Below, one piece after another: positions 10,579 to 37,474 of a stretch of DNA of 64,000 bases; position 1 is the stretch's first letter; each line of letters starts with the position of its first letter. A model generated the notes under the pieces. The model searched no databases. It saw nothing but the letters and a program-made list of their open reading frames with translations, and had not been told where the DNA came from. The position numbers were made by a program, and so were the translations under genes. This DNA comes from Blasia pusilla (lineage: Eukaryota). Location: contig CM114271.1 in assembly GCA_050084515.1 (NCBI GenBank), positions 6,200,001 through 6,264,000 of the forward strand, in the 5' to 3' direction.

Positions 10579-10712
10579 TGCAGAGGCACGCCATTCTCCT
10601 TTTGTTCTCAGAAGTGCGCTCTCTAACCCCTTTCTCTGAGTCGCTGTTTTTCCTCGTCTTCCCTCGCAGCTGCTACAGCAGGACTACTGCAGGCACTTGA
10701 CATAGAGACGCG

Positions 10713-11959
10713 ATGGCGGACGCCAAGGCCTGCACCGTGCGTACGCGCAAGTTTATGACCAATCGGCTACTTGCTCGCAAACAATTTGTAGGAGCACGGC
10801 TCTCTATTTCTCTAGTCGTCACTTTTCTTTCATGTGATGGTTTGCAATGTCTAGAGTGGATGTTTTTCTAGTTCGATAGGTTGGAAAGCTCTGCCGTTCT
10901 CTTGGTATGATCGCTGACGGAGGACAGTTTGCGGACATTTGGTCAGGTCATGTAGTCGTGTACAGGTCCATCGCATAGGTCTTGTAAATGTTAACAGATT
11001 CCGACTCGTGTCTGGTAGTATTCATTGTCTGGTGTTCATGTCACGTCGATTAGGGTTTCTGAATCTGTGGTAGTTGTTTAAACGGACAGGTGATTGATGT
11101 GCTACACCCGGGGAGGCCAAATGTCTCCAAGGTAAGCCCTTCAACTTGTTCTACGAACTCATGTAAAAACTTTGAGCGTAGGAATCTACCAGATAATCAC
11201 CTCGGCATCTTCCTCGAGAGTTTACTTCTCACCTGAGAATTTCAGTCCCTTAGTTCGTAATCCGCCCTATTTGCGCAGTTAACCTATGTGTCCGAATCAA
11301 ATAAGGTGCAAGACAACCTTAGTACAATCAAACAATGTGCAAGACAACGTTAGTAATTCGTGGCAGTTGTCTCTTCTTTGTTCTTGATGAATTCTACATT
11401 TAGGCTGAATTGAAGGAGAAGCTGGCCAAAGTATACGAGGTGCGCGACCCCCAGACCATTTTCGTGTTCGGATTCCGCACGCAATTTGGAGGTGGCAAGT
11501 CCACTGGTTTTGGCCTGATCTACGACAGCCTCGACTCAGCTAAGAAGCACGAGCCCAAGTACAGATTAATCCGGGTATGCTCCCCACTTAGACTCTCGAT
11601 CTCTTGCTATGATCATATTTTATGCAGCTTACTGTAGCCCCCAATGAACAACGTTTTACGGAGCCTAAATCGTCCTTCCTCTCAACAGAACGGACTCGCC
11701 ACCAAGGTTGAGAAGTCTAGGAAGCAGGTCAAGGAGAGGAAGAACAGAGCTAAGAAACTACGGGGAACGAAGAAGGTATGTTTTACTTTTCCCAACTCCT
11801 ATTGTAGTACATTGCGAAGATTTTCGGACAACCAATGATAGGCATAGAAGATGATCATCTGTGGGCTAATATCAGAATTAGAAATGGTTGCAAGCCTAAC
11901 GTATTCTTCTCATTTTGCAGACCAAGCAAGCAGGAGACGCATCTAAGAAGAAGAAGTAG
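10713..11959 (+). CDS. RPS24: 40S ribosomal protein S24 (eS24), 137 aa; exons 10713-10787, 11090-11131, 11404-11574, 11689-11775, 11921-11959
   Basis: Spliced translation [137 protein letters not shown]. All introns are GT-AG. Confidence 0.97.
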
Positions 11960-14900: not shown

Positions 14901-17879
14901 TATATATATATATATATGTAATCCTATAATAACGTCCAATTACACTGAAAATACCTTAAGGCCCCTTTTTTTTTCCCATATAAGCTCCTTCTTATTTTAA
15001 TCTTTCCCTTCCCCTCTCTCTAGCAATGATTTGTCTCTATTATGGATTCCTTTAAGCACCTCTTAAATACCTTTGAATCTTCATTTGAATGTGCCATTGA
15101 AGATTATTTTGGATATACATAGATTTTCATTGGATCATAATTCATTAAAAAAATGCTTATGCTATTTGTGAAGCTTTGGAATCTCTGATTGAATTTAAGT
15201 TCCTCAAAATTACCATGTTTAATCTTGATAATGATGGAGTTTGGTTTAAATTTTATTTCGTATGAAAATTTTTGTATTACATTTATGCTCATCCAGAAAA
15301 TTTTGTGCTGAAATGTTTAGGAGCCAAAATAGTATCTTATTTCATTGATACAAATACGAAGAAGTTTCATTGTTGAGATACGATAAATTAAATATAAACA
15401 AAAAAGGTTATTTATGTATATGGAAGATTCTGTAATTAAGTAAAAATCTTGAGACCGTTCTCAAAGGCACTTTAATTGCAAAAAATAGACTTTCCTATTT
15501 GAAATTCACATTATCTCAAAATTTGCAGAAGTTTGTAATTAACCAAACCCATTTAGTTATTTTGGATGGGCAACTAACTCTCAAGTGGTCGTGCAATAAC
15601 TAATGTTGACTATGATGTCGCTCCGTACAACCCACACTAAAAACCTATACGAACCAATTCAAGTTCATGGCCTAATCCAACACTTGCTTGAAGAGAGTTT
15701 AATATATGTCATGTTCTAACTAATTATGTCATATGTCTTAGACTTCACAGGAAATTCATGGAGACGGTATTTAATTCTGAATATAGGAAAAGAATAGAGG
15801 AAGGTAATAGAAGAAGAAAGAGGATTATTTTTCTAAAGGGCTTGCATTTCAATAGGAGAGGGGAAAGAAAATAACAATGTTAAAAAAAAAGGGGTTTGAA
15901 AGGAGTTTTTTTAAGTGTTAAAATTTCAATATAAGAAGGAAGGAGAGATATCTGATTTTGAAAAGGGGAGTGGAAAAGAGAGAAAGATATAAATTTTCAA
16001 CAAGATGTGACTTGTCACATCTTACTTTGACGTAGGTAGAATTCTATCGCGTCGACGACATAGAGAGTCAAGGGGTCATTTGCTTGGAACTTTGTCTCGA
16101 GATGTCGGATGAGGTTGGCAACAGGTCTATTGTGTCGGGAACGTCATTTATGGCAATTTCCCTATTTTGGTTTTAGTCCTTCAGGTGACCCGTTGATCGG
16201 GTCAACGGTCACGTGGTAACTTGTGCACGCAGGTTACCGTTGGTAGGGCTATTATTGGGGGAAGAGCTTTTTGGCTCTTCCCAAGGGTATAAGAGTGAGA
16301 GAAATGGCTTTCTCAAGCCATCTTTCTCATGTTGAGCCTTAGGAGCGCCTCCCTTGCATAGACGAGTGTGGGTGTGTAGGAGTTAGGGTGCTAGTATCCG
16401 GATTCCTTCATAACAAAAGGTGGATGTGGTTCGATATGTCGATGTTAATTCACGAGTGGAGTTTTAGGCTGGATGAGCCATTTTTACTACTCTTGATTTT
16501 ACATGAGAAAGATGCGAGGGGCCAAAAAATTCGTTGTTCGCAAGTAGGCAACCGAGTTGCTTCAGTGGGGAGCCCTTGGAGACGCTAGTTGGCATTTGTA
16601 TGGTCATTTTTTTAGTTCAAGAGGCCGTGCGCGGAAGCGTAGTCCATTTTTCTTACATCTCGTTGGTGCGGGGTGATGGGAGACAACAATAGAGGATAGC
16701 GCGCGGTGTGGCAACGAGTGTCTGTGAGTGATTCGTCGACGGGTGAGTGGCAAGTGTCGGGAGAGAGACTATAGGGCTTGCAGCCGCCAGGGGGCTGTTG
16801 AGTGAAGACGGCTAAGTTGGAGCCGTAGCCGTTTAGGTTACTTGAGATTAAGATCGGACGGCTAGAAAGCCGTTACGTTGAGGAGGAGGTAGCAAGGTTG
16901 GGACAAGTCGGGTGGAGCAAGGTGGCCAATTGCGTGGCCGCCAAGTGTCACACAGAGAAGGATACGGAGCTAGGTGTGTGCAGGTCGAGGGACGTACGCA
17001 TAGGGATGCACACCCATGTCGAGTAAGAAGGTAAGAGGAGATGGCATCAAGTCGTGCGACAGCAAAGGTCGCAAAGTGAGGGAGTAATGAGGGATGGGTG
17101 GCCGCCATAGGGCAGCGTGCTACCCATGCACGAGGAGTGTGAGGTCGAGCCAAGGGTTTGGGAGGCACCAAGGCTCCATGGAGAGCCATGGCCAAAGGTA
17201 GCTAGAGGAGGGCTCGGGCAGTGAAGAGGAAGAGCCGCGGAGGGGAAATAGGCGCATAACGGGGGAGCTTTGAAGGAGATGGGAGGAAAGAAGAGCATGG
17301 GATGCAAGAGGAGCCATTAAGGCTCCATGGAGATGGGACACACAAAGCCATTATGGCTCTAGGAAGCCACATAGGGTGGCGGGCTGGGAGGTATGAAAGC
17401 TGACAACGTACAACCAAGTGCCAAGGTGTTTTTGGGAGGAAGGAAAGCGCGGAAGGTGGAGAAGAGACAGCCGACGGCTGGGCAATGGCGGACGTGGCTA
17501 AAGGCATGAAGGCGCCACATAGAAGCAAAATGTGGTAATGTGGTTGGATACTAGGTAACGTGGTAGGACTGGATGGAGTACAGTTGGTTGTGAAGTAGGG
17601 CCAGGGTATTAACCGTGGTCAGGCAGATACACTGTTGAGTGAGGTCTACATAGTTGGGGATCTGGACTTACTTGGTAAAGTAAGAGATGGTTGACCATTG
17701 ATCATGGTAAGTAACATGGTCACGGATTTCAGATTATAGTTGGGAGTTGCGACGGGATTCACTTGCACTTTGTTGACCGGTGTTGAGACGAGTGATCCAC
17801 ACCGATAGTTTGCGATTGAGTGTAAGAGGTGGAGACACACGCACCGATGCCGATAGGCAGTCTGCATCGGGGTAGTACG

Positions 17880-20190
17880 AGTAGGAGTAGTGGAGTGACA
17901 CGGAGTGGTGTGAGGTATCGAGGGGTTTTGAGTGAGGAACCACCCCGACTCCCATTCGTGGCCAGATCATCATCACTAGAGAGCGGGTCTAGTGTAGAGA
18001 TCCCAGATGGGGACAGTGATGCGTGGAGAGAGGTGGACGACATGGGCCATCGGGGCATGCGTCATTTCTCGGGTGCGGTTGATACCATAGATTTAGATGA
18101 CTTCATCTAGGAGTTCGACACGTGATGGGACTTCTAGGAGATACGGACCCCTACGCAGTTCAACCCTTTCATGGCATGGAAGGGTTGTTCCAGCACTTGG
18201 AGGATCCTGAATGGATGATTACATGGAGTTTTGATCTCTATACTCTGTAGAGATCGATGCCTGGAGGGTGTATTGGGCTCAAGGGTATATATCCACTAGT
18301 GGCTGCGAGGCGTATGATGGGATAGTGAGGGCGGAGAGACCTACACCATCAACCCTGGGACTAGGTGGAGAGGATGGCAGTGAGAGTGGTGAGGTGGCAG
18401 AGACCTCTCGTGGTAGAGGACCACCGAGTTTCAATCCTACAGTGGAGTTCTTCCAACAGTTGGGGAGGAGCTACTATGGCGTGCGGACCCACAAGCTAAA
18501 TAGTCTACAGGATTTTCACTGGAGATCGGGTGAGAGTCTTAGGGAGGCGTTCACGTGCATGCGACGGTTGATCGTTGCCACATATGGGGTGATTGAGGCG
18601 CAGTTAGTGCAATATTGGTACGGGGTGCTGGATGAGGAGCTACGGAGGAGAGTTCAAGATGCGATGTTGCTTCACAAGGCAAAGCCCACAATGAAGGTGG
18701 TCTTGGAGTTGTTTGAGCGAGTAGAGCTCAACATGAGTGATTAGGAGCCACCTAGGATGGCCTCACTAGAGTTGCAGTGTGATCATTGTCATCGATATCA
18801 TCACACTAGGGATAGGTGTTTTGATCTTCGTCGAGCGATACGTCTAGAGGTAGGCAAAGGGCCTGGGGGCGAGAGAGTTGGTGGAGATCGAGGGGTTGAT
18901 GATCGTAGTGGTAGAGTTCCATCACCAGTCAAGGGAGATGGAGGACGTGCACCCAATGCAACGTTCCTCACTCGCATCGATCAGTTGGAGTAGAGGATTG
19001 CTACCATGACAATGATGCAACCAGTGATAGGCACGGAGCCGAGAGTAGCTAGTGTGGCTCCAGCCTCCACGTCGTATGAGGATACGCGGGAGGACTATAC
19101 GGGGTTGAGGTTTATGTATAGTGCGGCTTAGGTTGAGGCTGCTGCGGCGGTGACTCGAGGTGCTGCGAGAGTAACCGAGCCATCGAGAGGTGGGGTTGAG
19201 ATTGATCCATAGGAGGGGATCGATGGGTGGCAGGCCAAGGTTCCCCAGTTGTTCACATTGTCAGAGGCACTACATACAGCGTCAACGGATGGTGCCTTGT
19301 GGACCGATAGTACCTATGGGTGAGACAGGTGCGTCCACGTCACGAGGATTTGGAGAGACAACTCCTATGCCGGTTTAGGAGGAGCCAGTGTCGACCATGT
19401 TGTTGGAGGTGGCTATTAGGGTGAGCCAGACTCTGTTGTTTTCCGCCATGGAGTTGGCGACATTGGGAGTTGGACTAGCGGAGGTGTTCCGGCTGGCCGC
19501 CACGTTGTGTGAGTGTGGAGAGGTGACTACCTATTTTTCAGAGGTAGTTGAGGAGGTGGTGGACTTGCCCTCGAAGTAGGTGCTTGGGACGTTCCCCATT
19601 GAGTCATGGCATGCGGCAGTGGCAAAGTTGGTAGATATGCCAACTAGGCGAGCGATAGAGCAAGCTATGATCACACCAAGTGTGATGTTGTTGGAAAAAC
19701 AAGCATGAGTGTTACGCTTGGTTAGTCCCACAGGTATGATGTACCATACACAACACATCCTACTTGATTCGGGACCGCAACCCTTGATGTTAGGGAAGGC
19801 AACGTGTTTAGCGTTGGGTTTACGGAAAGGCGACATCGAGCCTTATTCCTTTTAGATATAGACCTCTATTGGGGGCGTATCACCCACACAATACATGACT
19901 CGGCAGGATTTAGTGATTAGACTTCATCCATAGCATGAGTCGGATAGTGCGATGGTGCGCACTCGGGCGATTACGACATCGCAGAGTCGTATGATGTGTT
20001 GGTAGGGAGTACGGTGTTGTATCCTCTTGGTTTCATTCTGGACTTTTGGGAGGAGACCGTTTCTTATTGGCCAGGGTGGCGATTAGGTGATGGACGGGTG
20101 AGCCATCTACCGGTGCAGTTTCCAGGAGTTAGTGGTGATCGATCGCGTGAGGATACGGTGATCACGTTGGCAACATTCACAAGTGGTGTC
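17880..20190 (+). pseudogene. Degenerate gag-protease of the outer element; truncated just after the protease (no MTase, RT or integrase)
   Basis: TIDLDDFI; SYYGVRTHKLNSLQDFHWRSGESLREAFTCMRRLI (retrotransposon gag-like); CDHCHRYHHTRDRC knuckle; LLDSGPQPLMLG protease motif at ~19760; YDVLVGSTVLYPLGFILDFWEE. Many in-frame stops. Confidence 0.82.
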
Positions 20191-22799
20191 GCTATTGTGT
20201 GGTGTGTAGATATGACCAGAGATGTGGGTTGTGTAGCAATGTATATGCGTACAAAAACTGTCACATCTTACTTCAACATAGGTAGAGTTCTATCGCGTCG
20301 ACGACATAGAGAGTTAGCGGGCTGTTGGGTGTAACTTTGTCCCAAGATGTCGGATGAGGTTGGAAACAGGTTTGTTGTATCGGGAATGTCGTTTATGATG
20401 AATTTCCTATTTTGGTTTTAGTTTGTCAGGTGACGCGTTGACCGGGTCAATGGTCACCTCGTAACCTATGCACGCAGGTTACCGTTGGTAGGGCTATTTT
20501 TGGGGGAAGAGATTTTTGGCTCTTCCCAAGGGTATAAGGGAGAGAGAGATGGCTTTCTCAAGCCATCTTTATCATGTTGAGCCTTAGGAGTGACTCACTT
20601 AGATAGACGTGTGTGGGTGTATAGGAGTTAGGTTGTTAACATCCACATTCTTTCATAGTAGAGGGTGGATGTGGTTTGTCACGTCTTTTAGGATAGATCG
20701 GTGGGATCTAATAGAGCGCCTTCATGAGTAGTGGAGGACACGCCCAGTAGGTCGAGGGTGACCTGCTGAGGCCCTTGGAAACCTGAGATAGCAGGTTTCC
20801 CCTTCGTTTCGGCTCATTTGGAGCCATATTGAGGAACTTACTATTTTAGGTAAGTACCATTTTGAGTATATTATCGACTTACTATTTTTGGTAAGTGGCC
20901 CTTGACCTCCTACATCAGGTCAAGGAGGTGACTTGGGAGAATAGGTTACCATGGAGAGAGCTTGGGAGAGGAGAGGGGTATACCTCAAGGAGAGAGAGCT
21001 TGAGAGCTCATTCTCTCTTTGTTGAACCTCTTGGCATGAGGCGGCGGAGCTATGGTACCTTGCCTTGTGAGTGTAACCCAAGCCTCTCATTAGGAGAGTG
21101 GGTTTGGTTTGACATGAGAGAGAGTGCACACCTTTGAGAGCTATGGTGTGAGATGGTGGAGAGAGAGATTGGATCTTACTTTACAAAGAGAGAATGAGAG
21201 AGTGAGAGAGCTTCATGGGGGAGCTCGCTGGTCACTCCCTGTTTTTGCAGGTTGGGGACCGTGTTCCCCGTTCAGCGGCTCATGGGAGTGCTCACCGGAG
21301 CAAGGGGTGCTTTCATTACTCTTTGCATTTGCCGATTTTTCGTGTGGAAGAGTGGCGCGCGGAAGCGCTGCCCAATTTCTGATAGGGATTGAGTATGGGG
21401 GCGGTTGCCCCATGCTGGTGCTCTCGGGAACACCATGTAGCTTGCTGATATGTATTTTTACAGATGTTACATTTTCGTTGGGAGAAATCAGCGCAGGAGC
21501 GCTGCCGAATTTTGTGTAGGAGAAAGAGACATTGGGCTTTACGACAGTCCCCGTCATTTTTTACTGAAATGTTTGATTCTAAATATTTTTTGATGGTAGT
21601 GTAGATCGTGAAGCTGTGCACGCTGTGCAACAAACAGTGCACAAGTTGGAGTTGCGAGCAAAAAGTTATGGGCAATCTTGTAAAGCTGCCATTGCTAGGC
21701 GATTTTTAGGGTTAAATCGTGCAAACCCTAAATCAACCGCCACACCGGCGGCGGCCGTCGCCATCATAGTCACCGTCAACGGTCGACGGTCAACCGTCAC
21801 CGTCATCGGTCGGCCGTCACCATCAGCGGTCAACCGTCACTGTCAAGGGTCCACCGTCCATTGTCCACCCTTTGGGTGCCATTGTCGCCATTACGGAGTG
21901 GAGGGTCTTCCATGACGTTCGTTGATTCCTTGACTTGCGTCGCCACCACGTACTTTGTTTTGGCCGCCACCGTCATCGCAGTTTCTTCATCAACCAATGA
22001 AGGCAGATGACCTCCGGTTATGGTGTTTGAGTTTTGATTTCATGCTGCTATGTTGTGATTGGTAGCCGCTCGACGACGATCGAGTATCGTGTCGTGGCGC
22101 CAGAGCCGCAACGCCGCCCGATTGCCGCGCCCGTGTCGCTCGGGCCGCACCGCACCATCTCTATCGCGGAGCCGCACCGTCATTGTGGAGCGAGTGTGGG
22201 ATTATTATTGATTGAGGAGGGTATGCCGCCGAAAGTGCCGCATCCCACCATCGAGGGCCGCGGCCGTTTGTAGCCGTTCGCGTCGCGCCGCAACGCCGCA
22301 CCGTTCGGCGGGACCGCGCAGGTGTCTATCGAGGAGTTTTGAGCAGCATCATGACGGGAGGAGTATGACTTGCTGATTGGAGGAGTTGTCTCCACGATCG
22401 AGTTGGGGTCGAGATTTGCGATTCTTGAGGAGCGACATCGACATGTGTTCGGGTTACCCATTCTCGGTCCTTTACCCGCACGTGTGAGGGATTCTGGGAT
22501 TTATTTGGGGATATTGGGTGTGTGGATGCTGAGAGCATCATTTATATATGTGGTTTAGGGGACATAGACCTGTGTGGGATGTCCGGAGTTGAGGGTAGGT
22601 TGTCGATGAGATGATAGCCTGGTCGATTTGCCGCACCACGCCGCGTGTTGCAACACGTTACACGTCTCGGGGAGAGAGAGTGTAGATCGAGTGCCGCATG
22701 TTTGGGATGAGTGATTGAGGGATTCCTCACGAGGTTCAGAGTGATCGGGTGAGAGGGGCACGAGGGTCATCACGGAGTCTGTTCAGGACTTTGAGAGCC

Positions 22800-24750
22800 G
22801 AGGTGGTGAACCTAAGAGTAGCTCTAGAGGTTTTACGCGGAGTGGCGCGAGGTTTCGAGGGTCTCCACGTGAGGGACCACCTCAACCTCCTTCTGTGTCA
22901 TCGTCAGACGAGGGGGAGGGTGTAGAGGAGTTTGTGAGCACATCGCCACACATTGTGAGTGGTCCTACCGGTTGGGCGTCACGAGATGGACGATCGGGGT
23001 AGAGGACGCGAGGTTTTCAGGTGTGAGGCACGATTGAGTTGCACGCGATTTTATAGCAGAGTTTAGGAGTTGGTGCGACTCCCGTGGGCCAGAACTCTAG
23101 AGAGTTCAACCGTTCTTACAAAGATGGAACGGTATGTTCCAAAGATTTAGAGGGGGCGCCCATGGACGATTACCATGAGTTCTCTCGAGAGATATGCATG
23201 TGAGATCGAGGCGTGGAGGCTCTACTATGACCCACATTATGTGTCATGGACGGAGCGTTCCCAGATGAGGAGGAGGAGTCGAGAGGCTACTTCCTCTTCC
23301 ACTAGTGACGTTTTAGGAGGGGTCACTCGACGGGAGCGATTGCACCGTCTAGTCGGGTTCATCCCTGAGTTGAGTTCTTTTGAGTTGAGGGCGAGCTACC
23401 AAGGGGTACGGACGGAGAAGTTGCGGAGCATCCACGACTTCCAGAGGCGCCGGGTGAGAGTTTGCGTGAGGCTTACACTCGCTTGCGCCGGTTGATCAAC
23501 GTCACTCGGGGGGTGACAGAGGCTCAGCTATCCGGTCATGGTATGCGATCTTTGGCCGACCGACCCTGCGGACACGGAGTGCGGAGGGGGTGCTTCTTAT
23601 GAACACCTCCCCACGTTGAGATGTTTTTAGGACCGCCGAGAATATTGAGCGCAACATGGCGGAGGAGAGCGTAGCCACCATGGGTTCTGGGCGAGAGCAG
23701 TCACGATTGTCTGCACCACTTGTGTAGCAACGTGGACTCCGAGATAGGTCGACTATGGCACCACGAGCTCGGGGGGAGGATACCGAGAGGCCGTGCCACG
23801 AGACTGCGCCTTCATATGCGGCTCAAGGCAGCAGCCGCCTACTATTACTTGTTGGTCATGTGGTGGAGCCCATCATCAGCGCGATTGCACTCGCGGGGTC
23901 ATGGACGTGTGCCTCAAAGATGGAGGAGGAGATGGTGTCGCACCAGGAGGTTATCGGTGTGACTACCGCCGAGGTATGGTCATACACGCGCCAGGTGTTT
24001 TAGTTTACATCCTGAGTTACGCCTGGACCGAGGGCCGAGAGGGCACCAGAGCGAGTAGCCGGTCCGGTGGGCCTAGAGATCGTGCTCCAGGTGGTCCCGT
24101 TGGGGGACGAGGAGCTGGAGTTGCCCGACAGGGTGGTGGAGCGCCGTGGAGGAGGTAGAGTACCACCACCTAGACGCGCCGAGGGAGATGTCGGACGTGA
24201 GGCCGGGATGGTCGCTTTCGATACAACATGACTACATGAGCATATTGCCGCTATGGCATTGAGGTTACCCGATGCCGGATCTGTGGCATCGACATCATAT
24301 GGAAGCGTCGAGAGATCCGGAGGATCCTGGATGGATGCGAGGTTGCCAGATGGAGGCCGCCGCAGACAGACGCGTGGAGCAGCCGCAGAGTTGATCCACA
24401 GCGAGGGGAAGCCAGAGATGCAGACTAGGCTTCCTCAATCTTTCACGTTGTCGGCGATGAGGACCCCATCGATGGGTCCTCATCAAAGTTCCCAAGAGTT
24501 GGTAATGTTGTTGGTGTGCAAGCACGGAGGGTGATGGGAGAAGCGAAGTGCGACGACTCCTATTGTTGATGCTCGGAGAGGGCATGTGTCAAGCACGTTG
24601 TTGGGGCGGCCACCGTTGTGTACCGCACTCCTTTATTTTCGCTTCCGATGTTGTGACGTTGGGAGGTACGCCCGCCGAGGTTTTTTTTCGGCTGGCCGCT
24701 TCACTATGTGAGCGTGGAGTTGGAGTTCCTGCATCACATTCGTGAGGTGA
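22800..24750 (+). pseudogene. gag region of the inner element (frameshifted as assembled)
   Basis: LRASYQGVRTEKLRSIHDFQR (homologous to the outer gag); CCHC zinc knuckle CWSCGGAHHQRDC at ~23850-23890. Boundaries approximate. Confidence 0.75.
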
Positions 24751-24784
24751 TTGCAGAGGAGGTGATGGACCTGCCCTTGAGCGG

Positions 24785-25340
24785 ATGCTCGGGCCGCCCA
24801 CGCCGATTCATGGCAGTGCGGTCGCTAGGATGGCGGAGATGCCCGCTAGACCCGCGATAGAGCGTGCCATGGCTTCTCCTGGTGTTGTGTTGCTGGATAA
24901 CCGAGGAGAGGTCTTCCAGTTGGTGAGTCTTGGAGGTAGAGCTTTTAGTCCGCAGCGCGTCTTGTTGGATTCAGGAGCGCAACCCTTGATGTTGGGGAAA
25001 GCGTCATTCAGAGGATTGGGCTTGACGAGAGCCGATGTGGAGTGTTGTCCATTTCGGATACAGACATCCTTGGGTGGAGCGAGTACCACACAGTATATCA
25101 CCCGACAGGAGGTCGTGGTGAGGATTCGCCCGGGACATCCTACAGATGAGTCCGTGGTGCGCGCCAAGGCGATAGTGACTGATGCTGAGTCCTACGACGT
25201 CTTGGTTGGTGGAGCAGTGTTATACCCGATGGGGTTTTCCCTGGATTACTGGGAGGAGTCAGCGTCCTACAGACCAGGATGGCAGTCAGGTGATGGGCGC
25301 CTTAGCTCATTACCCGTTCGATTCACAGGTGCAGTGATCG
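24785..25340 (+). pseudogene. Retrotransposon aspartic protease domain
   Basis: RVLLDSGAQPLMLG active-site motif (~24960) and distal SYDVLVGGAVL motif. Confidence 0.88.
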
Positions 25341-25674
25341 AGCAATGGCGATGGCAACCTTAGCAGCATTTAGCAGTGCCATCACTTGGCCTAGTGATTT
25401 GATTGAGGGACATGTCCATGCAGAGGATACTCCCGTTCCTGACATTTCTATGGAGAGGAGTGTTATGGTAGCTGCATCATTCCGTGGAGGAGAGGTGCCG
25501 CTGTGGGGCTCGACTGAGGAGCTTCAACGATTGGCAGATGCGCACGTGCAGACCGCGTGGAGCGAGGCGTTTGCACCAGAGCGTGACGGGTCTGAGGAAC
25601 CCGAGGTAGCGGGGAGTGCTACGATGACACCCTTGGATACTACACCCATTGTGTGGTGTACCCCGGAGGAGGGT

Positions 25675-26600
25675 ATTCGAGTGTTAGATCTCTTTGGAGG
25701 GATTAGCACCGGGTTAGCTCTTGCTTTGGCAGGAGTGCGAGTACAACAAAGATTTGTATGTGGAGAGTGATGATGTTGCGAGGCGCGTCTCACTACGACA
25801 TGTGGCGCAATTACGCCTACGTTTTCCCGACTTATTGTCTGCGTCCGCATTACAGGGGATACCAGAGTTCCCTACCGAGGGATATTTTGTTGTTGGGGGC
25901 GCAGGACTTAGAGCGGGTAGGGACCATTGATTTGGTCATTGCCGGTTGGCCATGTCGGCCAATCGAGAGCCGGACGAGGCAGCTGGTTGGTCGACACTCG
26001 GTCCAGGTTTTTTGGGAGATGTTGAGGGTCTTACGGCGAGTTGCAGAGCACCGCCTCATTCTCCGGCCTACATTCGAGAATGTGCCGATCTTAGAGACTC
26101 AGTGTCACGGGTCGTGATGAATGCTCATCAGGTGCGTGCCTGGATCGGCCCAGAAGTGTTCTTGGATGCGGCGAGTGTAGGTTCTAGAGCCCATCGCCCG
26201 CGTCTATGGTGGACCAACTTGGTGCCCCATGCGGTGTTATGGAGGGCGTATGCAAGAGTGGAGCGCCCCTCCCTTTGTTAGTGGATTCCATTCTGGATCC
26301 AGTCGCCGATCACACGCAGTGAGGCACGATGATCGACCACCGCCGACCGGGTCAGGGGTAGGCAGGCCGCGGCGCCTTGCCCACGTTTGTGAGTTTTCCC
26401 GCTTCCTATGCATACAAGGAGGCCGGTCTTGGCTTGGTTTGGGATGACCAGGTTCAGCGGTTGGTGGAGCCCAACGCCGACGAGAGAGAGCGAGCAATGG
26501 GATTTCCCACAGGAGTGACGGTAGTACCATCAATGTCAGAGGCATCACGACGCCATGTCTTGGGTCAAGCGATGGACCTGAACTGCTTGACATGGATCTC
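25675..26600 (+). pseudogene. DNMT3-like C5 cytosine DNA methyltransferase domain embedded in pol (split over several frames)
   Basis: Motif I IRVLDLFGGISTGL (25675); II YVESDDVA; III PRDI; IV IDLVIAGWPC (PC at 25950-25955) then GQSRAG...DTRS; VI ENV (26076-26084); VIII LDAASVGSRAHRPRLWWTNL (26162-26221); IX EPNADERERAMGFPTGVT (26467-26520); X RRHVLGQAMDL. All are in canonical I-to-X order. Confidence 0.9.
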
Positions 26601-26939
26601 GCCTTGGGAGTGCTCGAGCGGCGTCGTATGAGATCGTGATAGATCACGGCCGGTTGCGCAGTGAGCCCCATGCCTACCGAGACGGTGGAGGCAGTGGCTG
26701 GGGGCGAGACCCGAGGAGATCTACGCACCAGGGAAGATCGGGAGAGACACACTTGGACTTCTTGGGATGTTTTGAAGGTACGCAAGGAGATGATAGCCAC
26801 AGCATCGAGTGTGGTTTCGGCAATCGCACGTGGAGGAGATCAGAGTTTGCGCTGGCTGCAGGAGAGCGGCCGAGTGTTGTTGTTCGAGACGGGTTGCACC
26901 ATAGCAACCACCGATACCCGCCACGGAGAGTCCTACCGT

Positions 26940-28370
26940 AGTCACGATGGAGACTTGGGAGCCGATATGGGCCCTAAGTTGACAGGAGGAGAGTGGCGCC
27001 GAATACATCAGTTCCTTAGGAGTTATAGGAGCCGCTGCGTTTAGCATGGAGGATTTGGGTACGTTGAAGGGACCGGGATCCGCATTGAGTTGTCGAGTGA
27101 TATGCCGATCTTCTTCCGCGACCCTACAGTGTCTGATGATATGGAGAGGGATCTGATTGAGTAGGAGCCAAGACTTGGTGAGCAGACTAGTGGAGATGTC
27201 GCATGGGGAGTATGCATCCGCCACTTTGTCATGCCCGCCAAGAAGGATGTGCATGGCAACCGGACGGATAGGCGGATGTGTGGGGATTACCGACCTATCA
27301 ATCGGCGCATTTAAGTCCGATAGGTATGCCATGCCCACCCTTGAGGAGATCTTTGATGCGATTGGTCACGCAAAGGTCTTGATTCATTGATTTTGAAAGT
27401 GGATACCATCACCGCCTATCGATTGAGGACAAAAAAGACGGCATTTTGGGGCATTGATCCTCACGGGAAGGATTGTTTGTACCAGTGGCGGTTCTTACCA
27501 TTTGGGTTAAAGAACACCCGGCTGAGTTTCAAAGGGTCATGGATAGGATCTTGGCTGGTTTGGATTATTCTAGGTGTTATATTGATGACATCGTAGTCTT
27601 TAGCGCCACCACGGTTGAGGAGCATGAGCAACATCTAGAGGAGGTGTTTCGACGATTGCAATTACATGGGTGAAGCTACATCCGGCAAGTGCAAGTTCTT
27701 CTACGACCAGATTGAGTACTTGGGTCATACGATATACCCAGGGGGCCTTGGTGTTCAAAGACGAAGGTAGAGGCTATCTCATGCATTCCACGCCCCTGAG
27801 ATGTGAGCCGTGTTCGCAAGATTCATGGGATTGGCAAACTTCTATCGGCGATCGTCAAGGGATTCGGGATTCGATTATGGCCGCTGACCTTGCTCACCAA
27901 GGTGGATCACGAGTGGCACGGGGATGAGCAGAGCGAGCATTTCGATTGCTCAAGAACAGGTTGACGCCCGCACCCATCTTGAGGAGACCGATCAGGGGCG
28001 CCCTTTCCGATTGCACACGATTGGAGCATGTTGGGGCTTGGAGCAAGTGCTCACCCAAAGATGATGATGAGGTTTGTGGTGGCTTACGCTAGCCGCTCGA
28101 ACAACGCTGCAGGCGAAATCTGATTCAGTATGAGGGTGAGTGCTTGGTCATGCGTGTGGGTCATCGCGCATTTTAGGTGTTACTTATTCGGCAACCCTTT
28201 ACCATCATCATCGATCATCAACCACTGAAGTGGTTGATGGAGTCCGACAAGCTTACAAGGAAGCTTGCGAGATGGGCTCTGTTGTTGCAGGAGTATGATT
28301 TTCAGGTGGTACATAGACGTGGAACGCTCAACCAGGATGCAGATGGGTTGAGTCGTAACCCATGCCCGAA
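26940..28370 (+). pseudogene. Reverse transcriptase and RNase H of the inner Gypsy element (frameshifted as assembled)
   Basis: RMCGDYRPIN, DRYAMPTLEEIFDAIG, KTAFWG, YQWRFLPFGLKN, PAEFQRVMDRILAGL, CYIDDIVVFS; RNase H VVAYASRS, DHQPLKWL, LARWALLLQEYDFQVVHRRGTLNQDADGLSR. Confidence 0.93.
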
Positions 28371-28539
28371 GTCGAGATGCGACTGGAGCTCGATGGCATG
28401 GAGAGAGTGATGAGGAATTGGTGCCAGGATGGCACGCGTCAGCCTATTTAGGCATGTTGGCTATGGAGAGCTAGAGTGTGGAGACTTCGATGGCGAGGTC
28501 TAGTGGAGAGTCTTTGGATCCCGAGGCCAGTGAGGACAC

Positions 28540-29800
28540 GACAAGTGGCCGAGATATTCATGATGATGGAGTAGTCTTAGAGTACCTTCGTACTGGCAGC
28601 CTTGCGAGCACCATGGATGCTAGAGAGCGGGATCGGATCCTACAGCGGGCCAGACGGTTCCGTTGGGAGGGGACACATGTTTTGAGGGTTTGGGAGGATG
28701 GCAGAGTACGCGTAGTGCCGCATCCTTTGCAGAGAGCACGACTAGTGCAGCATGCCCATGAGGAGTTGGGTCACTTTGGGGTGAAGCGGACGTATAGCTT
28801 GCTCCAGATTCAGTATTGGTGGCGAGGCATGCATGCAGACCGGCGTTCGGCAGCTTTGTTGCCAGTGCATGGTGTGTGATCGGGTCCGAGCATCGTTCAA
28901 TGCTCCGACTCACGCTTGCATCCATTACCAATCATGGGCTTAGGGTATAGATGGAGTTTGATTTTGCAGACCTTTGCCCTTGACGGAGCATCACGATCGT
29001 TATGTGTTGGTGATGGTGAGCACTTCTCGAAGTGGATCGAGTTGGTTGCATTGCCTGACAAAGCAAGTGAGGGAGTAGCTTATGCCTTCCTTGAGAGAGT
29101 GCAGAGTCATTATGGCACACCAGTTGAGGTGTTGACAGACCAGGGTACCGAAGTTTAGCGGTGAGTTCCAAGCCTTGTGTGATCGGGGCCGATCGACCAC
29201 CGCGACGACCAGCGAGATCATCCCGAGGCGGATGGATTAGCGGAGAGAGTTGTGCAGACGGTGAAGAGGGGTTTACGCAAGTATGGCTTGCGAGAGAGGT
29301 CACCTAGAGATTGGGACCTCCGATTTGCCATGGTTGGCGATGGGATACTGATTCGTGACGAGGCATCCTTAGCGTCTTTTTCACCATACTTGCTACTTTA
29401 TGGCGAGAGCCGATTTACCTGCGGCCATTCGCCGAGATCTTTGGTGAGGTGTCTGAACCTTGATGACCCAGATGTATGGGTGCGAGGATGTTCTCGTGAG
29501 GGTGAGTTATTTCGGAGAGTGATGCCCATGGCGTTCGAGAACTTGGCGATTGCACAAAGATTGGGATACGTTGAGGTATGCGACTATTCCAGGTGGTGGT
29601 TATCGACCAACAATCCGAAGGTTTCATCAGGGAGATTATGTCTATTTGCAGCAGACGGCACCGACGACGTTGGATGTGACTGCAGGGCGCACTATCCTGA
29701 GAGTGCGTGACATTTTGCCATCGGGTGTTTCTCTTCGGAGGGACGCGATGGTATGGTATGGAAGGACCATGTGCATAATTGTGCGCCATGTCACCTTCCT
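28540..29800 (+). pseudogene. Integrase (HHCC zinc finger plus DDE core) of the inner element
   Basis: HAHEELGHFGVKRTYSLL...YWWRGM...CxxC; LHPLPIMGLGYRWSL; EHFSKWIELVAL; VLTDQGTE; ADGLAERVVQTVKRGLRKY. Confidence 0.92.
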
Positions 29801-29854
29801 AACATTGATGGTACAAAGAGATCCGAGCTTAGTAGTAGTTCCTGCAGCTTGCAT

Positions 29855-29993
29855 TGTATGTTGTGTGGTTACGCCGTAGTGCGCCACAATGCTAGTCTGT
29901 GATGGGTGTTCGAGAGGATGGCATATGGCATGTTTGACGCCACCTCTCACTAGGGTTCCTCAAGGACGATGGATGTGTCCCATATGTACATAG
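29855..29993 (+). pseudogene. PHD finger (C4HC3) at the C terminus of the pol polyprotein
   Basis: CMLCG...(one frameshift)...[36 protein letters not shown], stop at 29991-29993. Confidence 0.9.
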
Positions 29994-31237
29994 AGAAGAT
30001 AGTTCTACATTCCGACTTGTGTCTATGACATGGATGACAAGGAGGCGACTAACGATGGGGCCACATGAGCACTCGGCCTTCTTGCTCTTAGCGTCCGAGA
30101 GATGTATGTCATGGTAGGTAGGGATAGATGGCTATCTGGAGTTAGAGGGACCTAATCACCAGCTAGGGGGGCGATTGGAGATATTTTGGTTCTTCTTGTC
30201 TCGTTGTTTGGATGCCATGAGTTAGCATGGGATCATGCGTGTTTCTGTGTGTGTTCGGTGACAGCGATGTATGTTGTGTAGCGATGTGTATGCGTCGGCG
30301 GTTGTCACGCGTCTTTTAGGATAGATCGGTGGGATCTAATAGAGCGCCTTCATGAGTAGTGGAGGACACGCCCGAGAGAGGTCGAGGGTGACTGCTGAGG
30401 CCCTTGGAAACCCGAGATAGCAGGTTTCCCAAGCGTTCGGCTCATTTGGAGCCATATTGAGGAACTTACTATTTTAGGTAAGTACCATTTTGAGTATATT
30501 ATCGACTTACTATTTTTGGTAAGTGGCCCTTGACCTCCTACATCAGGTCAAGGAGGTGACTTGGGAGAATAGGTTACCATGGAGAGAGCTTGGGAGAGGA
30601 GAGGGGTATACCTCAAGGAGAGAGAGCTTGAGAGCTCATTCTCTCTTTGTTGAACCTCTTGGCATGAGGCGGCGGAGCTATGGTACCTTGCCTTGTGAGT
30701 GTAACCCAAGCCTCTCATTAGGAGAGTGGGTTTGGTTTGACATGAGAGAGAGTGCACACCTTTGAGAGCTATGGTGTGAGATGGTGGAGAGAGAGATTGG
30801 ATCTTACTTTATTGGAGATATTTTGGTTCTTCTTGTCTCGTTGTTTGGATGCCATGAGTTAGCATGGGATCATGCGTGTTTGTGTGTGTGTGTTTGGTGA
30901 CAGCGATGTATGTTGTGTAGCGATGTGTATGCGCACGACAGGTTCGATATGCTGATGTAGATTCATGAGTGGATTTTTAGGTCGGGTGAGCCATTTTTAC
31001 TACTCTTGATTTTTTTGTTGGGTCTCGATGTATATATGTGAGTTTGTTTGGTTTGTGTGGATCTACCCGTATTTTGGGGAAGATCGATGTTGTGTGGTGT
31101 GTAGATGTGACCAACGATGTGGGTTGTGTAGCGATGTGTATGGGCACGACAGATCTCATAAGATTTTTTCTTATAATAGTTAATTTCAAATAAGAGATGG
31201 GAGGAAACATATAGTTGAATTTTCAAAGGGGAAGGGA

Positions 31238-32195
31238 TGTCATGTTTGTTATAGCAAAATGACGAGTATCAATATGATATTTTTGAGGAGATGGTAGATC
31301 GCTTCCAAAAGGTCGAAGATGATTTGATGAGGACTAGAATAATACTTATTACCCCATGTTTTGGGCTTATTTGGAGTTGTACTAAAGAACTTACCATTTT
31401 AGGGAAGGTCCCTATTTTGAATATAGTTAACCTTTCATTTAGGAAAAGTGGCCCTTCATCCACTATCGTAGGTTAAGGTTGAAAAGTTTATATGCGTGCA
31501 CGTTACTAAAGAGAGAGCTTGGAGAGAGAGAGAGAAGGGATGTATCCAAGGAAAAAGAGTTTGAAAACTCATTCTCTCTTTGTTGAACCTTAATTTTTAA
31601 GGCAACGGAGCTATGCTTCTCCTTGCCTTTTGAGAAATCCAAGCTTCTTATTAAAAGAGACAAAGTTAATTTGGTTTGATATGAGAATGAATGAATGAAT
31701 GAATAGATTTATTGTCCACAGAGACCCCACAAGGCCATGGGACTTAGTTTTGAGACTTAACAAAAAGTTTGGAGAGAGATCAAGCACAAGCAAGGGCCTA
31801 AGAGGTCATCTAAGCCAGGTGAGTGTCCCTATTTTCACATAGCTATGCAAGAATTTAGCAATCTGAATCTGATTCTGCCTAGCCATGAATGCGGGCACTT
31901 TGGGAGTCTGGTGATCAAAGAGATCCGGGAAGTCAAGCTTACTGTGACTATGAAAGGTGCAATTGGAGAGGTTATGATGTTCATCATCAATAAGCCCCAA
32001 GTTGCAAAATCTACATAAACTGTCCTCCTTTTTCTTCAGTGAGAATTTTCCTTTCTCAACCTCAAGGTCAATAGAGCCACATCTGAATTTCGCTAATGTA
32101 TGACGTAACTTAGTGGGAATGGGGGCAGAGATGTAAGAGGCTTGCTAAATGGATCTGCAGGTGTTCATGAGGGTGTGATAGTGCCTCATGAACAC

Positions 32196-34449: not shown

Positions 34450-34536
34450 TACGTCCTGAAATCTGTGCAGGTTCATTTACTTGTCCAAATCTTCCTGTTT
34501 TGCCGCGTGAACCGGTCGCGTTTTAGTCGAGCATCG

Positions 34537-34856
34537 CTAGTCTGAGGTGGCGATGTTAGGGTGCACTCCTGCTCTTGTGGTTCAAATGCGTGGCTCCCAT
34601 ATACAGCACCGGGAGCTTCTGAATCACCTAGGACGTCTGAATCTGGCATCTCTAATCTGAAGTGGAGATGTGGGAGTGTGCGCTACTGCTCTTCTTGTTC
34701 AAATGTCTGGCTCCTACCTGCAGTAGCGTGAGGGTTTGAATCACCCAGTACGTTTGAGTCGGGCATCTCTAGTCTGAGGTGGAGAGTTCAGGGTGTGCTC
34801 CTGCTCTCGTAGTTCAAATGCGTGCCCCCGACTTACCGCACCTAAGCTTCTGAATC
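34537..34856. repeat. Diverged tandem repeat, about 3 x 116 bp, upstream of the PPR coding exon
   Basis: cta(g/a)tctga(g/a)gtgg...ctgctct...gttcaaatg...tgaatc recurs at ~34537, ~34652 and ~34769. Confidence 0.75.
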
Positions 34857-35353
34857 TGCAGTTAACCTCCGTCCATAATCTGCGCAATTTCTCTCTAGAG
34901 ATGCATCCAGTTTCTTTCCCTCGGATTGGCTTTCCTCCATTGTGGTCAATGCTTTCGGGGGAACTTCACAATTCCGTAGGAGTAGATTTCGCGGATTTTT
35001 CCTGTCAATCGGCATTCGGCAGTGGCATGTTTACCGCTGTGTCTCGAGAGCGTCGATGGGACTGTATGACACTTCCGGATTGGTAGGAGTTAATGCTTGG
35101 GATCGTTTCTTACCGCAACTGCGAAGAATAGGACCGTAAAATACCACACGTCCACGACTTTTTCTGATCTGATTCTCATGGCTGGAGTAGCCGATTAGGC
35201 ATTCTGTACCGGTCTATCATGTGCTTGCTTGTTCTGATTTCGTTTGGTCTACGGTTGCGCTTTGGATAAGTTTTCGCTTCTTAACTGGCTGCATGTTATT
35301 TCCGCAGGTATGAATGTCATCAAGATCGAAGATGAACACTCTCAGACGTGAAG

Positions 35354-37474
35354 ATGAGGAATAGGTTGCTTCACACCCGGACTCTTTCGAGAGTGGTGGA
35401 AGCTCAAAGAAGGCTTATTGAAATTCGGGACAGCGAGGGGTGGATCGGCTGTTTAAGAGCTGGCAACTCCACTGGGAAATCTTTGTGTCGCACTTGGCTT
35501 GGTTCTCACAGCGTCGATCAATTCTCGAGCAACGTCGACCGGTGCAGAGTGGTGGGTTTAGGGCTTAGGGCATTTCGCAGGACGTTTTCATGGATGGTCG
35601 CTGCGCCAGATCTCACAAGGGGTTGTTTACTGGGGGATGAATATTGGAATAAACCTTTCGGAAGTGAGATATATGACAGGAAAGAGTCGAACAGGAAGGG
35701 ATCGCATTGGAGGAAGGAAGATCCGGGGTACCAAGAGGCTAAGAGTATCGGTAGTGTGTGCAATGTGCTACAGAGATGGCAGTGGACGAAAGAAACAGAG
35801 ATAGCCCTTACGAAGTTGAGTATCAAGCTCACCCCATACTTGGTCTACGAGGTATTGAAACGCCAACGTGATCCAGACATGGCATTCAAGTTTTTTGAAT
35901 GGTCCAAGCGGCAACCAGGATACAAGCATGAGACGGCAGTGTATACCCGGATGGTGATGATTGCAGGGGCATCCAAGAAGTATGAGGCTGTGAAGGGCTT
36001 GGTGGCTGAGATGGAAACCGAGGGTTGTGAGAGAAATCTCGCCTTTTACAATGCTCTGGTTGATTTTTTTTCCCAGGCTAGGATGTTGGATGAAGCCCTT
36101 CAAGCCCTTGAAACTATTAAATCATGTGGCTGGTCGCCCACATTCTTCACATACAAGTGTCTTGTTCATTCAGCTTTGAAGTCGGGGAATGTTAGAAAGG
36201 GTGCTGAAATGTACATGGAGATGATGCAAGCCGGGTTTATGCCTGACAACACCACCGTGAACATGTTAATTGACGCATTTGCCAAGACAGGCCAAATGAA
36301 GACAGCCTGCAATATCTTTCGGGAAATGGTGGATAGGGGTTGTGTACCAGACGTTTACACATACACCATTGTGATCCGGAGTCTTGGTCAAAAGGGACAC
36401 ATGAATGCAGCCATGAAAGTCTTCAGGGACATGATAGAAGCAGGCTGTAGACCTACTTCGTACACATACCACAGTTTGATCCATGCCTTTGGCAGGGAGG
36501 GGAAAGTGAACGAGGCAGTACAGCTAATCAATGAAATGGTCAACAAGGGCTATCAACCAGGTATTATAACCTATAATATACTCATTGATGCGTATGCGAA
36601 GGCAGGTGATTGGGATGGAGCAATGGAACTTTTTGAACGAGCTAAGGGGATGGCTGATGCTGTCACTTACAATAGCATGCTGGATAGGGCTGTTAAGAAA
36701 GGAGATGTTCATGCTGCCTCCCAACTTTTCGAGCAGATGGGTGCCACAGGGTGCATTGCCAACAAAGTTACGTATGCAATTTTGATCCGGGGCCTTACCA
36801 AAGCTGGCAAGGTGGAGGAAGCATGTAAGCTGTATGAAGAGATGAAGCGCCTGAATCTGAAGCCAGATGCCACCATCTTCAACAACATGATTGATTGCCT
36901 TGGGAAGATGCGGCTCATTGATGATACTCTGAAGCTTTTTAAAGAAATGAAGGATCATGGTGTACGTCCTGATATGTGTACATACAATACATTGATTAAT
37001 CGTCTATGTAAAGCAGGTCAAATAGACATGGCATCAAAAATTGCAGAGGAAATGGCAGAAGCTGGTTGTATACCAGGTCGAGTTACGTACAATTGCCTAA
37101 TCAACAGTTTGGGGAAAGGAAGGAAAATTGATGCAGCTTGCAAACTGTTTCTAGAAATGCAGCAAAAGGGTGCCAAACCTGATGTAGTTACATACACCAG
37201 CCTCATTGATGGTTTTTTCATTGCAGAGAAAATTGACTCAGCCCTATATATGTTCCAAGAAATGAAAAAGGTAGGCTGTCGCCCAAACGTCGTAACTTAT
37301 AATCTCCTCATAGATCACCTCATCAGGCAAGGTCGAATTGCTGCGGCTTTGAACTTCTGGCAAGAGATGAAAGAGAAGGGCCTTACTCCTGATGAGATCA
37401 CAGAGACCATCTTAGGTCGGATTCCACTGGAATGCAGAGGTGGGCAGACAACAAATCAAGAGGGCAAGAAATGA
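35354..37474 (+). CDS. P-class pentatricopeptide repeat protein (~706 aa), single coding exon
   Basis: Long ORF with tandem 35-aa PPR motifs (PDVYTYTIVIRSLGQKG, PDMCTYNTLINRLCKAG, PNVVTYNLLIDHLIRQG), an N-terminal AFKFFEWSKRQPGYKH motif and no E/DYW domain. First ATG at 35354; a likely 5'UTR intron acceptor at ~35308. Confidence 0.95.
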   Translation: MRNRLLHTRTLSRVVEAQRRLIEIRDSEGWIGCLRAGNSTGKSLCRTWLGSHSVDQFSSNVDRCRVVGLGLRAFRRTFSWMVAAPDLTRGCLLGDEYWNKPFGSEIYDRKESNRKGSHWRKEDPGYQEAKSIGSVCNVLQRWQWTKETEIALTKLSIKLTPYLVYEVLKRQRDPDMAFKFFEWSKRQPGYKHETAVYTRMVMIAGASKKYEAVKGLVAEMETEGCERNLAFYNALVDFFSQARMLDEALQALETIKSCGWSPTFFTYKCLVHSALKSGNVRKGAEMYMEMMQAGFMPDNTTVNMLIDAFAKTGQMKTACNIFREMVDRGCVPDVYTYTIVIRSLGQKGHMNAAMKVFRDMIEAGCRPTSYTYHSLIHAFGREGKVNEAVQLINEMVNKGYQPGIITYNILIDAYAKAGDWDGAMELFERAKGMADAVTYNSMLDRAVKKGDVHAASQLFEQMGATGCIANKVTYAILIRGLTKAGKVEEACKLYEEMKRLNLKPDATIFNNMIDCLGKMRLIDDTLKLFKEMKDHGVRPDMCTYNTLINRLCKAGQIDMASKIAEEMAEAGCIPGRVTYNCLINSLGKGRKIDAACKLFLEMQQKGAKPDVVTYTSLIDGFFIAEKIDSALYMFQEMKKVGCRPNVVTYNLLIDHLIRQGRIAAALNFWQEMKEKGLTPDEITETILGRIPLECRGGQTTNQEGKK

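Follow-up and report, generated by a model that had tools for sequence, protein, structure and literature searches.

How can a retrotransposon carry the split direct repeats of a tyrosine-recombinase element if its insertion is the work of a DDE integrase? This question is raised by an element, here termed F, which occupies positions 20677-30940 of a stretch of 64,000 nucleotides (nt) of the liverwort Blasia pusilla (NCBI GenBank assembly GCA_050084515.1, contig CM114271.1, positions 6,200,001 to 6,264,000 of the forward strand). We refer to this whole stretch as the window. Split direct repeats count as a hallmark of retroelements with a tyrosine recombinase, and how they function is for the most part a model on paper. 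The footprints of a DDE integrase are exact: TG...CA ends, a target-site duplication (TSD) of 4 bp and empty sites. The inserted molecule thus has ends that are known to the base, and a replication scheme becomes testable. We found that the split repeats of F are real, precisely bounded and normal for its family.

Boundaries, repeats and insertion site of F

F consists of a first repeat A1, an internal region, a second repeat B1, an 8-nt spacer, A2 and B2, in this order. Its non-coding parts and flanks are as follows (L022 is a related element from a metagenome):

20673-20676 (+): left TSD of F, GGTT; the empty site holds a single GGTT at 16428-16431
20677-21183 (+): A1 of F, starting TGTCACG and followed by CA and a purine-rich leader; 97.8% identical to A2
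30130-30173 (+): polypurine-like block of F, ending AGGGGGG (30165-30171), directly 5' of B1; 91% identical to the block of L022
30174-30294 (+): B1 of F, without the terminal heptamer; 96.7% identical to B2
30295-30302 (+): F-specific spacer tcggcggt, which replaces the heptamer plus 2 nt of its relatives
30303-30811 (+): A2 of F, from its match to A1
30812-30940 (+): B2 of F, ending CACGACA, from its match to B1; the A2/B2 joint is ambiguous by 1 nt
30941-30944 (+): right TSD of F, GGTT, from the sequence and the empty site

A repeat search and BLAST within the window aligned A1 with A2 over 511 columns (E = 0) and B1 with B2 (30811-30933) over 123 columns (E = 1.5e-52). Downstream of A1 there is no B. 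The spacer lies at the point where B2 continues with cacgaca (30934-30940). A preliminary description of F had already reported that A1 matches only A2, that B is duplicated 5' of A2 and that tcggcggt stands in for cacgaca; all of this was reproduced at the same positions.

The same description had noted TG...CA ends and a 4-bp TSD. Indeed, F starts with tgtcacg, ends with cacgaca and is flanked by ggtt on both sides. Its target is preserved in uninterrupted form, as F sits inside the A2 repeat of an older element, termed O, whose A1 is intact at the corresponding position. Here, 16013-16431 matches 20259-20676 (359 of 419 positions, 86%), and 16428-16500 continues straight into 30941-31013 (64 of 73 positions) with only one ggtt. 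One contig of the public DNA run X1 skips F entirely and joins 20676 to 30945. It is the paralogous empty site in O that proves the boundaries of F, and not the 4-bp match alone. Given its termini, the 4-bp TSD and the empty paralogous site, the insertion of F is of the DDE-integrase type. The insertion point (20677) inside A2 of a copy from its own superfamily is a single case; self-targeting has been reported for DIRS-1.

Coding regions of F

The reading frame of F is broken many times. Between A1 and the polypurine-like block, the following regions were recognized:

23151-23602 (+): gag-like region; no Pfam match, similar to O 18441-18606
24746-25363 (+): aspartic protease region; DSG motif by eye, similar to O 19487-20096
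25306-26631 (+): C5 DNA methyltransferase (Dnmt3-like), frameshifted, in four frame fragments; motifs by eye and relatives
27157-27927 (+): reverse transcriptase, fragmented; RVT_1, E = 4.9e-07
28177-28410 (+): RNase H; RT_RNaseH, E = 1.3e-09
28475-29710 (+): integrase with H2C2 zinc finger and DDE core, fragmented; Integrase_H2C2, E = 9.2e-11, and rve, E = 8.9e-05 (below the cutoff)

Along F, the Pfam matches are thus ordered RVT_1 (27458-27673), RT_RNaseH, Integrase_H2C2 and rve. A sibling on a metagenome contig, L005, is better preserved and gave, in order, DNA_methylase (E = 7.1e-09), RVT_1 (2.8e-31), RT_RNaseH (9.3e-15), H2C2 (1.7e-05) and rve (1.3e-13), with both DNA_methylase and rve above the cutoff. 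F had been described as a Gypsy element with a DDE integrase. This assignment stands, the rve core being below the cutoff in F and above it in L005. According to Pfam, both elements share the pol order protease (PR), reverse transcriptase (RT), RNase H (RH) and integrase (IN); the protease matches of F are weak and below the cutoff (Asp_protease_2, E = 0.049; RVP_2, E = 0.17). No tyrosine recombinase (Phage_integrase, Pfam) was found in the 16 open reading frames (ORFs) of at least 120 amino acids that lie between 20000 and 31600 on both strands.

The methyltransferase (DNMT) of F was approached through one of its fragments, 25707-26117, for which PF00145 scored below the cutoff (E = 0.019). 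This fragment had no match in a word-indexed protein search and none in the PDB. An exhaustive HMMER protein search returned 32 relatives at E <= 1e-3, and PF00145 was above the cutoff in nine of the ten relatives that were scanned. The closest one, P0001, is 46% identical to the F fragment and aligns by eye with both neighbouring fragments of F. Its best matches in the PDB were DNMT3A (1e-06), plant DRM and DNMT3B, with HhaI far behind. Thus, F is very probably a dead, frameshifted copy of a Ty3/Gypsy lineage that carries a Dnmt3-like cytosine methyltransferase between protease and reverse transcriptase, and is of the same kind as KnitGypsy-Dnmt3 of the alga Klebsormidium nitens.

Among the more distant relatives of the fragment, P0024 (1608 amino acids) combines a C5 DNA_methylase domain and a Dam (N6-adenine) domain in one protein. 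This pair recalls the dual-methylase "EpiLTR" elements in the available part of a 2026 preprint (10.64898/2026.05.21.726589).

The layout in related elements

The A...B-A-B layout was confirmed as an inherited family trait and is neither a one-off nor an artefact. The nearest evidence lies in the window itself, where O (16013-31151) has the same layout as F:

16013-16500 (+): A1 of O, which begins TGTCACA and precedes ACA and a purine-rich leader; holds the uninterrupted target of F; from its match to A2 of O
16501-20188 (+): internal region of O, with gag-like and protease-like parts kept; similar to F 23368-23530 and 24686-25299, ORF at 18235-18744
20189-20258 (+): 3' part of B1 of O (~70 nt), directly before A2; 81% identical to the end of B2 of O
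20259-20676 (+): A2 of O, first part, interrupted by F; 86% identical to 16013-16431
30945-31013 (+): A2 of O, second part; extends the match to A1 of O over 16432-16500, 87% identical
31014-31151 (+): B2 of O, ending CACGACA, read from the sequence

Deletions have removed all other parts of pol from the internal region of O, together with the polypurine block and the 5' portion of B1.

Further relatives came from metagenomes. A search with an alignment of the DNMT relatives returned 40 loci; P0001 as a single query returned none. The most complete locus is L022, with A1 at 1676-2017, B1 at 10238-10350, the spacer GC, A2 at 10350-10691 and B2 at 10693-10805. Its A repeats are 92.1% and its B repeats 93.8% identical, and its TSD is AAGG. 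L005 shows the layout in part, as A1, polypurine block, B1, GC and A2 are present up to the end of the contig. In L013, which is the same locus as L012, the 3' part is scrambled and A2, B2 and a TSD (CACA) are retained. Inside this TSD-bounded element, at L013 12683-13245 (L012 4923-5485), pieces of A and of internal sequence lie in inverted orientation, which points to a template switch in the course of reverse transcription or to a subsequent inversion. Among the four full A...B-A-B elements with both ends, a TSD was present in three (F, GGTT; L022, AAGG; L013, CACA); the fourth is O.

If F were an oddity, most members should carry two complete A+B long terminal repeats (LTRs), or B should follow directly on A1. 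Neither was observed: O and the independent metagenome elements share the layout of F, and an A next to the leader never precedes B. Such a leader-adjacent A was listed for ten loci, which represent eight distinct ones (L002, L004, L005, L009, L013, L014, which equals L015, L016, and L022, which equals L023). In all eight it is preceded by unique flanking sequence and in none by B. The same leader follows in nine of the ten listed copies, the only exception being L002 with an internal deletion after A, and B follows in none.

Two loci end differently. The deleted copy L011 has a TSD (ATGT); its left end consists of the last 11 nt of A (6319-6329) plus leader and begins TGTCAT like a true A start, while its right end (11979) is a single B after the polypurine block. 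L011 is either an abortive complementary DNA (cDNA) or a copy with several later deletions. L021 likewise ends with polypurine block, B and flank. Five other loci (L028, L029, L030, L033 and L036), which form a group at 45-47% identity, contained tandem repeats only and no split repeats; they may be another family or host genes and were set aside.

All copies seen are degenerate. In a search of public runs, parts of F were found in 19 rows from 10 studies, including air metagenomes. Summed over contigs, the depth of the family was very high in two DNA runs, and two raw RNA runs showed that it is transcribed. First mates of the RNA reads matched the minus strand 10-30 times more often than the plus strand; provided that the libraries were stranded in the usual way, this means sense RNA. 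Across 20400-31200, the siblings deviate from F mostly by C>T and G>A (282 and 321 places in run X22, versus 33-136 for each other type), an excess as expected from the deamination of methylated cytosines in a silenced family.

The internal junction and its surroundings

At the internal B1/A2 junction, the two outer ends of the element are present as an abutted copy, normally 2 nt apart, which is transcribed. L005 has an intact heptamer, GC and the start of A; L022 has the heptamer with one C-to-T change, GC and the start of A. In O, a decayed heptamer (tacaaaa, 20250-20256, three substitutions) is followed by the spacer ac (20257-20258) and tgtcac. Public runs gave the same picture. They were analysed at a likeness threshold of 90% in a highly repeated family, so that the joints stem from sibling copies. 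Contigs of run X2 join 30940/30941 back to 20676/20677 (3 and 6 contigs), and so do sense RNA reads of runs X22 and X23 (2 and 6 reads each), with 0-4 letters between in either case. Most of these joints are 2-nt spacers, namely AC, GC, AT or GT. In X23, a loose-end consensus of 37 reads runs from 30940 into AC and then TGTCAC (agreement 0.51).

The 8-nt spacer without heptamer, noted in the preliminary description, is peculiar to F and no defining trait of the family; its relatives O, L005 and L022 keep the heptamer plus 2 nt. For the same reason, the idea that the spacer serves as primer-binding site (PBS) was dropped.

Directly 5' of B1 lies a block ending AGGGGGG-CG, which is 91% identical between F and L022. 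Its neighbours have diverged: between the two elements, B can be aligned in its last 66 nt only (76%) and A not at all. Sibling RNA reads likewise match 30138-30174 only and diverge on both sides (loose ends). Conserved between diverged neighbours, this G6 block behaves as a polypurine tract, so that plus-strand DNA should start at B. At the other border, a short purine-rich stretch follows A1 in F, O and the metagenome family. A motif search for an initiator-tRNA PBS gave three matches with two mismatches in the window, none of them in F or O, which is chance level (82 of 100 shuffled sequences were as good). A self-priming hairpin as in Tf1 was likewise unsupported by the RNA folds at the A/leader border.

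Both repeat pairs are renewed with each transposition. The identities of the A and B pairs are 97.8% and 96.7% in F, 92.1% and 93.8% in L022, and 86-87% and 81% in O, whereas B repeats of different elements share at most 81%. The two pairs thus diverge in step and differ far more between elements. Both pairs were therefore identical at insertion and are rebuilt from single templates in each transposition, as LTRs are.

The A2/B2 joint varies. It is direct in F and holds one extra A in L022. At the joint of L012/L013, A is followed by 9-11 nt identical to the start of the leader, a short filler and B. Correspondingly, position 21192 (9 nt into the leader of F) is joined to 30811 in one contig each of X1 and X2.

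A possible route of replication

Simple schemes with one primer site and one polypurine site, worked out on paper, give B-A...B-A, B-A...B, A...B-A or A...B. None of them yields A...B-A-B without an extra joining or transfer step, and they were rejected in this simple form. The preliminary description had suggested that reverse transcription or strand transfer follows a non-standard scheme, which is a reasonable supposition. With the polypurine block before B and the leader after A, B-junction-A is the unit that lies between primer site and leader. We tentatively propose, with somewhat less than even confidence, that this is the repeat unit in reverse transcription and that the integrated copy arises by circular permutation, with the integrase opening the molecule at the B/A junction.

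In such a scheme, B-junction-A would be the equivalent of U3-R-U5, between the plus-strand primer site (the G6 block) and the leader. The RNA would start close to the end of A1 and extend to the end of A2, and ordinary two-jump reverse transcription would convert it into a cDNA of the order B-A, genes, B-A. In content (A and B twice each, with a single internal junction), this would equal the integrated copy and differ only by permutation. The cDNA's own ends would then be joined, in a circle or by an end-to-end template switch, to give the A2/B2 joint. Retroviral circle junctions carry primer-derived filler. Integrase would open the B/A junction of the leader-side unit and insert the molecule via its TG and CA sides, resulting in A, genes, B-junction-A-joint-B. 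The other junction would stay internal and pass both termini on to the next RNA. The cutting of LTR-LTR junctions by integrases is on record, as far as the available text of two reports goes (PMC1905944, PMC1180852). The permutation scheme accounts for the 2-nt junction, the polypurine block, the A/leader border, the paired divergence of the repeats and the variation of the A2/B2 joint. Taken together, the identity of F given above and the permutation mechanism have, in our judgement, about an even chance of being the best explanation.

Several points weigh against this proposal. Its main weakness is that a symmetric circle with two junctions should open at either of them, so that an asymmetry must be assumed: the alternative product, A-B-junction-A-genes-B, was seen in none of the eight distinct metagenome loci and in neither of the two window elements. 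No minus-strand primer site came to light, F and O having no PBS of the initiator-tRNA type, and the RNA fold at the A/leader border was no better than that of shuffled sequences in F (z = -0.89), L022 (z = 0.31) and O (z = 0.26). F itself lacks the heptamer at its internal junction though its outer ends are perfect, and the flanks of O (gact and gatc) do not form a matching TSD. The variability of the A2/B2 joint comes from one scrambled copy (L012/L013) and two low-depth contigs. Seven read starts clustered at 30791 are only a hint of a transcript start or poly(A) site. Finally, the copies that end with polypurine block, B and flank (L011, L021) fit several schemes, including later recombination between B1 and B2.

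The strongest rival, which we consider rather unlikely, is a linear pathway without any circle. Here, the minus strand would be primed at the internal junction, with the start of A2 as primer site and B as U5 (plus R), and three transfers would follow. The nascent strand would copy B1, move to the A2/B2 end of an RNA and proceed as far as its 5' end, by way of A2, the junction, B1 and the genes; a last transfer onto A2 would complete A1 and stop at the junction. The product would be a linear A...B-A-B molecule with integrase-ready ends. Several points favour this pathway. The junction, with CA, 2 nt and the next block, has the usual spacing of U5, spacer and PBS, and is crossed by sense RNA reads. 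Only the observed orientation would result, which fits the absence of the alternative product from all ten elements. Moreover, L011 with its TSD resembles a junction-primed minus strand that made no transfer; the same copy is, however, also explicable by later deletions (through a 6-nt TGTCAT microhomology inside A and recombination between B1 and B2). There are further difficulties. The transfer at the start of the internal B1 is unforced, and the completion of the plus strand at the left end requires extra assumptions. The start of A does not begin with TGG and is therefore not complementary to a tRNA 3' end, which leaves the primer unaccounted for. The leader-derived nucleotides at the A2/B2 joint of L012/L013 are not explained either. 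The probability that remains beyond circular permutation and linear pathway goes to schemes not yet conceived.

Could F be a true DIRS/PAT-like element, moved as a closed circle by a tyrosine recombinase that is encoded elsewhere or was lost, with the Gypsy integrase being irrelevant? The repeat layout is that of PAT-like and Ngaro elements, and F, in a single case, inserted into a copy of its own family, as is reported for DIRS-1 (both in the available text of PMC7192593). However, 4-bp TSDs in F, L022, L013 and L011, the TG...CA termini, the presence of an rve integrase core and the lack of Phage_integrase in all 16 ORFs mentioned above make this highly improbable. Scarcely credible is a one-off rearrangement or assembly artefact of an ordinary element with two complete A+B LTRs: F is damaged by many frameshifts and its junction is aberrant compared with its relatives, but the layout recurs in O, L022, L005 and the published K. 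nitens family, no leader-adjacent A stands before B in the ten listed loci, independent public DNA runs show the same adjacencies, and the ends of the element are fixed by the paralogous empty site. A nested composite was rejected as the source of the layout of F, too.

Other features of the window

Beyond the end of O, a third A-like sequence (31240-31700) is strongly decayed and AT-rich, with ~70% identity to the A of F over 346 columns. It starts with tgtcatg ~90 nt past the end of O and is followed by neither B-like nor coding sequence. Further downstream, 35336-37474 (+) is an uninterrupted, intronless frame of 712 amino acids, by eye a P-type pentatricopeptide-repeat (PPR) protein. An intronless gene at 49028-50257 (+) encodes a TOM1-like VHS/GAT protein that is 80% identical to its Marchantia polymorpha counterpart over the full length, 85% to that of M. 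paleacea over 79% of the query, 76% to that of Riccia sorocarpa and 75% to that of Calypogeia fissa. No Klebsormidium protein was among the 120 matches listed, and a protein atlas gave Streptophyta, so that the host looks like a land plant of the liverwort type. This single-exon gene may be a retrocopy. Tandem repeat arrays lie at 34519-34856, 40564-40966 and 43809-43980. The array at 40.5-41.0 kb has a period of ~80 bp with units that are 82-96% alike, and the long ORFs in that region are repeat artefacts. ARAGORN found no tRNA genes in the window.

Comparison with known systems

The A...B-A-B kind of Gypsy-Dnmt3 element is already known since 2018; the liverwort host and the anatomical detail are new. 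The novelty implied by the preliminary description must be reduced accordingly. De Mendoza et al. described Dnmt3 domains inside pol of an LTR Gypsy retrotransposon of Klebsormidium nitens, and the legend of their Fig. 4c assigns a DIRS-type repeat structure and a Gypsy domain composition to KnitGypsy-Dnmt3 (PMC5890265). The main text of that paper gives no termini, TSD, junction anatomy or mechanism, for which its supplements may hold more. A 2026 preprint, in its available part, mentions "streptophytes (Gypsy-DNMT3)" (10.64898/2026.05.21.726589). Within a literature coverage that was incomplete and excluded supplements, we found no published account of the termini, TSD, junction anatomy, replication scheme or liverwort occurrence of Gypsy-Dnmt3 elements.

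By its description in the available text of PMC5890265, KnitGypsy-Dnmt3 resembles F in its Gypsy-type pol with a Dnmt3-like DNMT in the polyprotein and in its A-coding-B-A-B repeats. The two differ in host, a liverwort here and not Klebsormidium. With the nearest DNMT relative in the searched library only 46% identical to the F fragment, they are probably not the same family at the sequence level; the K. nitens element was compared by description. To the published one-line note, we add a 2-nt-spaced junction that is a near-perfect copy of the abutted termini, a conserved polypurine block before B1, the renewal of both repeat pairs in each cycle, and the presence of this kind of element in a land plant, where it is very abundant and transcribed.

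Like canonical Ty3/Gypsy elements, F has the PR-RT-RH-IN order, an integrase with H2C2 and DDE parts, TG...CA ends, a short TSD and, ahead of a repeat, a polypurine tract rich in G. In contrast to them, its 5' repeat is A only, and F does not have two complete, identical LTRs. Its polypurine block adjoins B1, which is absent from the 5' end, and not the beginning of the 3' repeat that corresponds to the 5' end. Downstream of A1, we found no PBS of the tRNA type, and a DNMT domain is added. LTR finders will mis-call such elements: they will either accept A1/A2 as the LTRs, so that B2 is missed, or assign a wrong TSD. Repeat annotation and insertion dating will consequently be biased in genomes that contain them.

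With PAT-like and Ngaro elements of the order DIRS, F shares the split direct repeats A1...B1A2B2, whose outer ends lie side by side internally. The preliminary description had assigned this layout to tyrosine-recombinase elements, in agreement with the available text of PMC7192593. The logic is shared as well: an internal copy of the termini allows the full element to be rebuilt from an incomplete transcript. The difference lies in the integration enzyme, since those elements have a tyrosine recombinase and no DDE integrase, while F and its relatives have an rve integrase, TG...CA ends and 4-bp TSDs. PAT-like and Ngaro elements are not known to make a target-site duplication.

Abutted ends as a substrate of DDE enzymes have parallels elsewhere. 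Transposon circles of the IS3/IS911 type carry abutted ends on which a DDE enzyme acts. In the cleavage of retroviral 2-LTR circles, a DDE enzyme works on ends that are abutted in a circle only a few bp apart (available text of PMC1905944 and PMC1180852). In retroviruses, such cleavage is a side reaction, or else a step that only spumaviruses have, whereas in the family of F it would have to be the obligatory route. We regard as doubtful, but worth stating, the broader idea that here a retroviral-type DDE integrase obligatorily uses the abutted-ends junction (CA, 2 nt, TG) of circularized or end-joined cDNA. The two-LTR junction, a by-product in retroviruses, would then be the normal integration site. 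DIRS/PAT/Ngaro elements and the Gypsy elements described here would, with their split repeats, have the same solution to reverse transcription, served by two unrelated integration enzymes.

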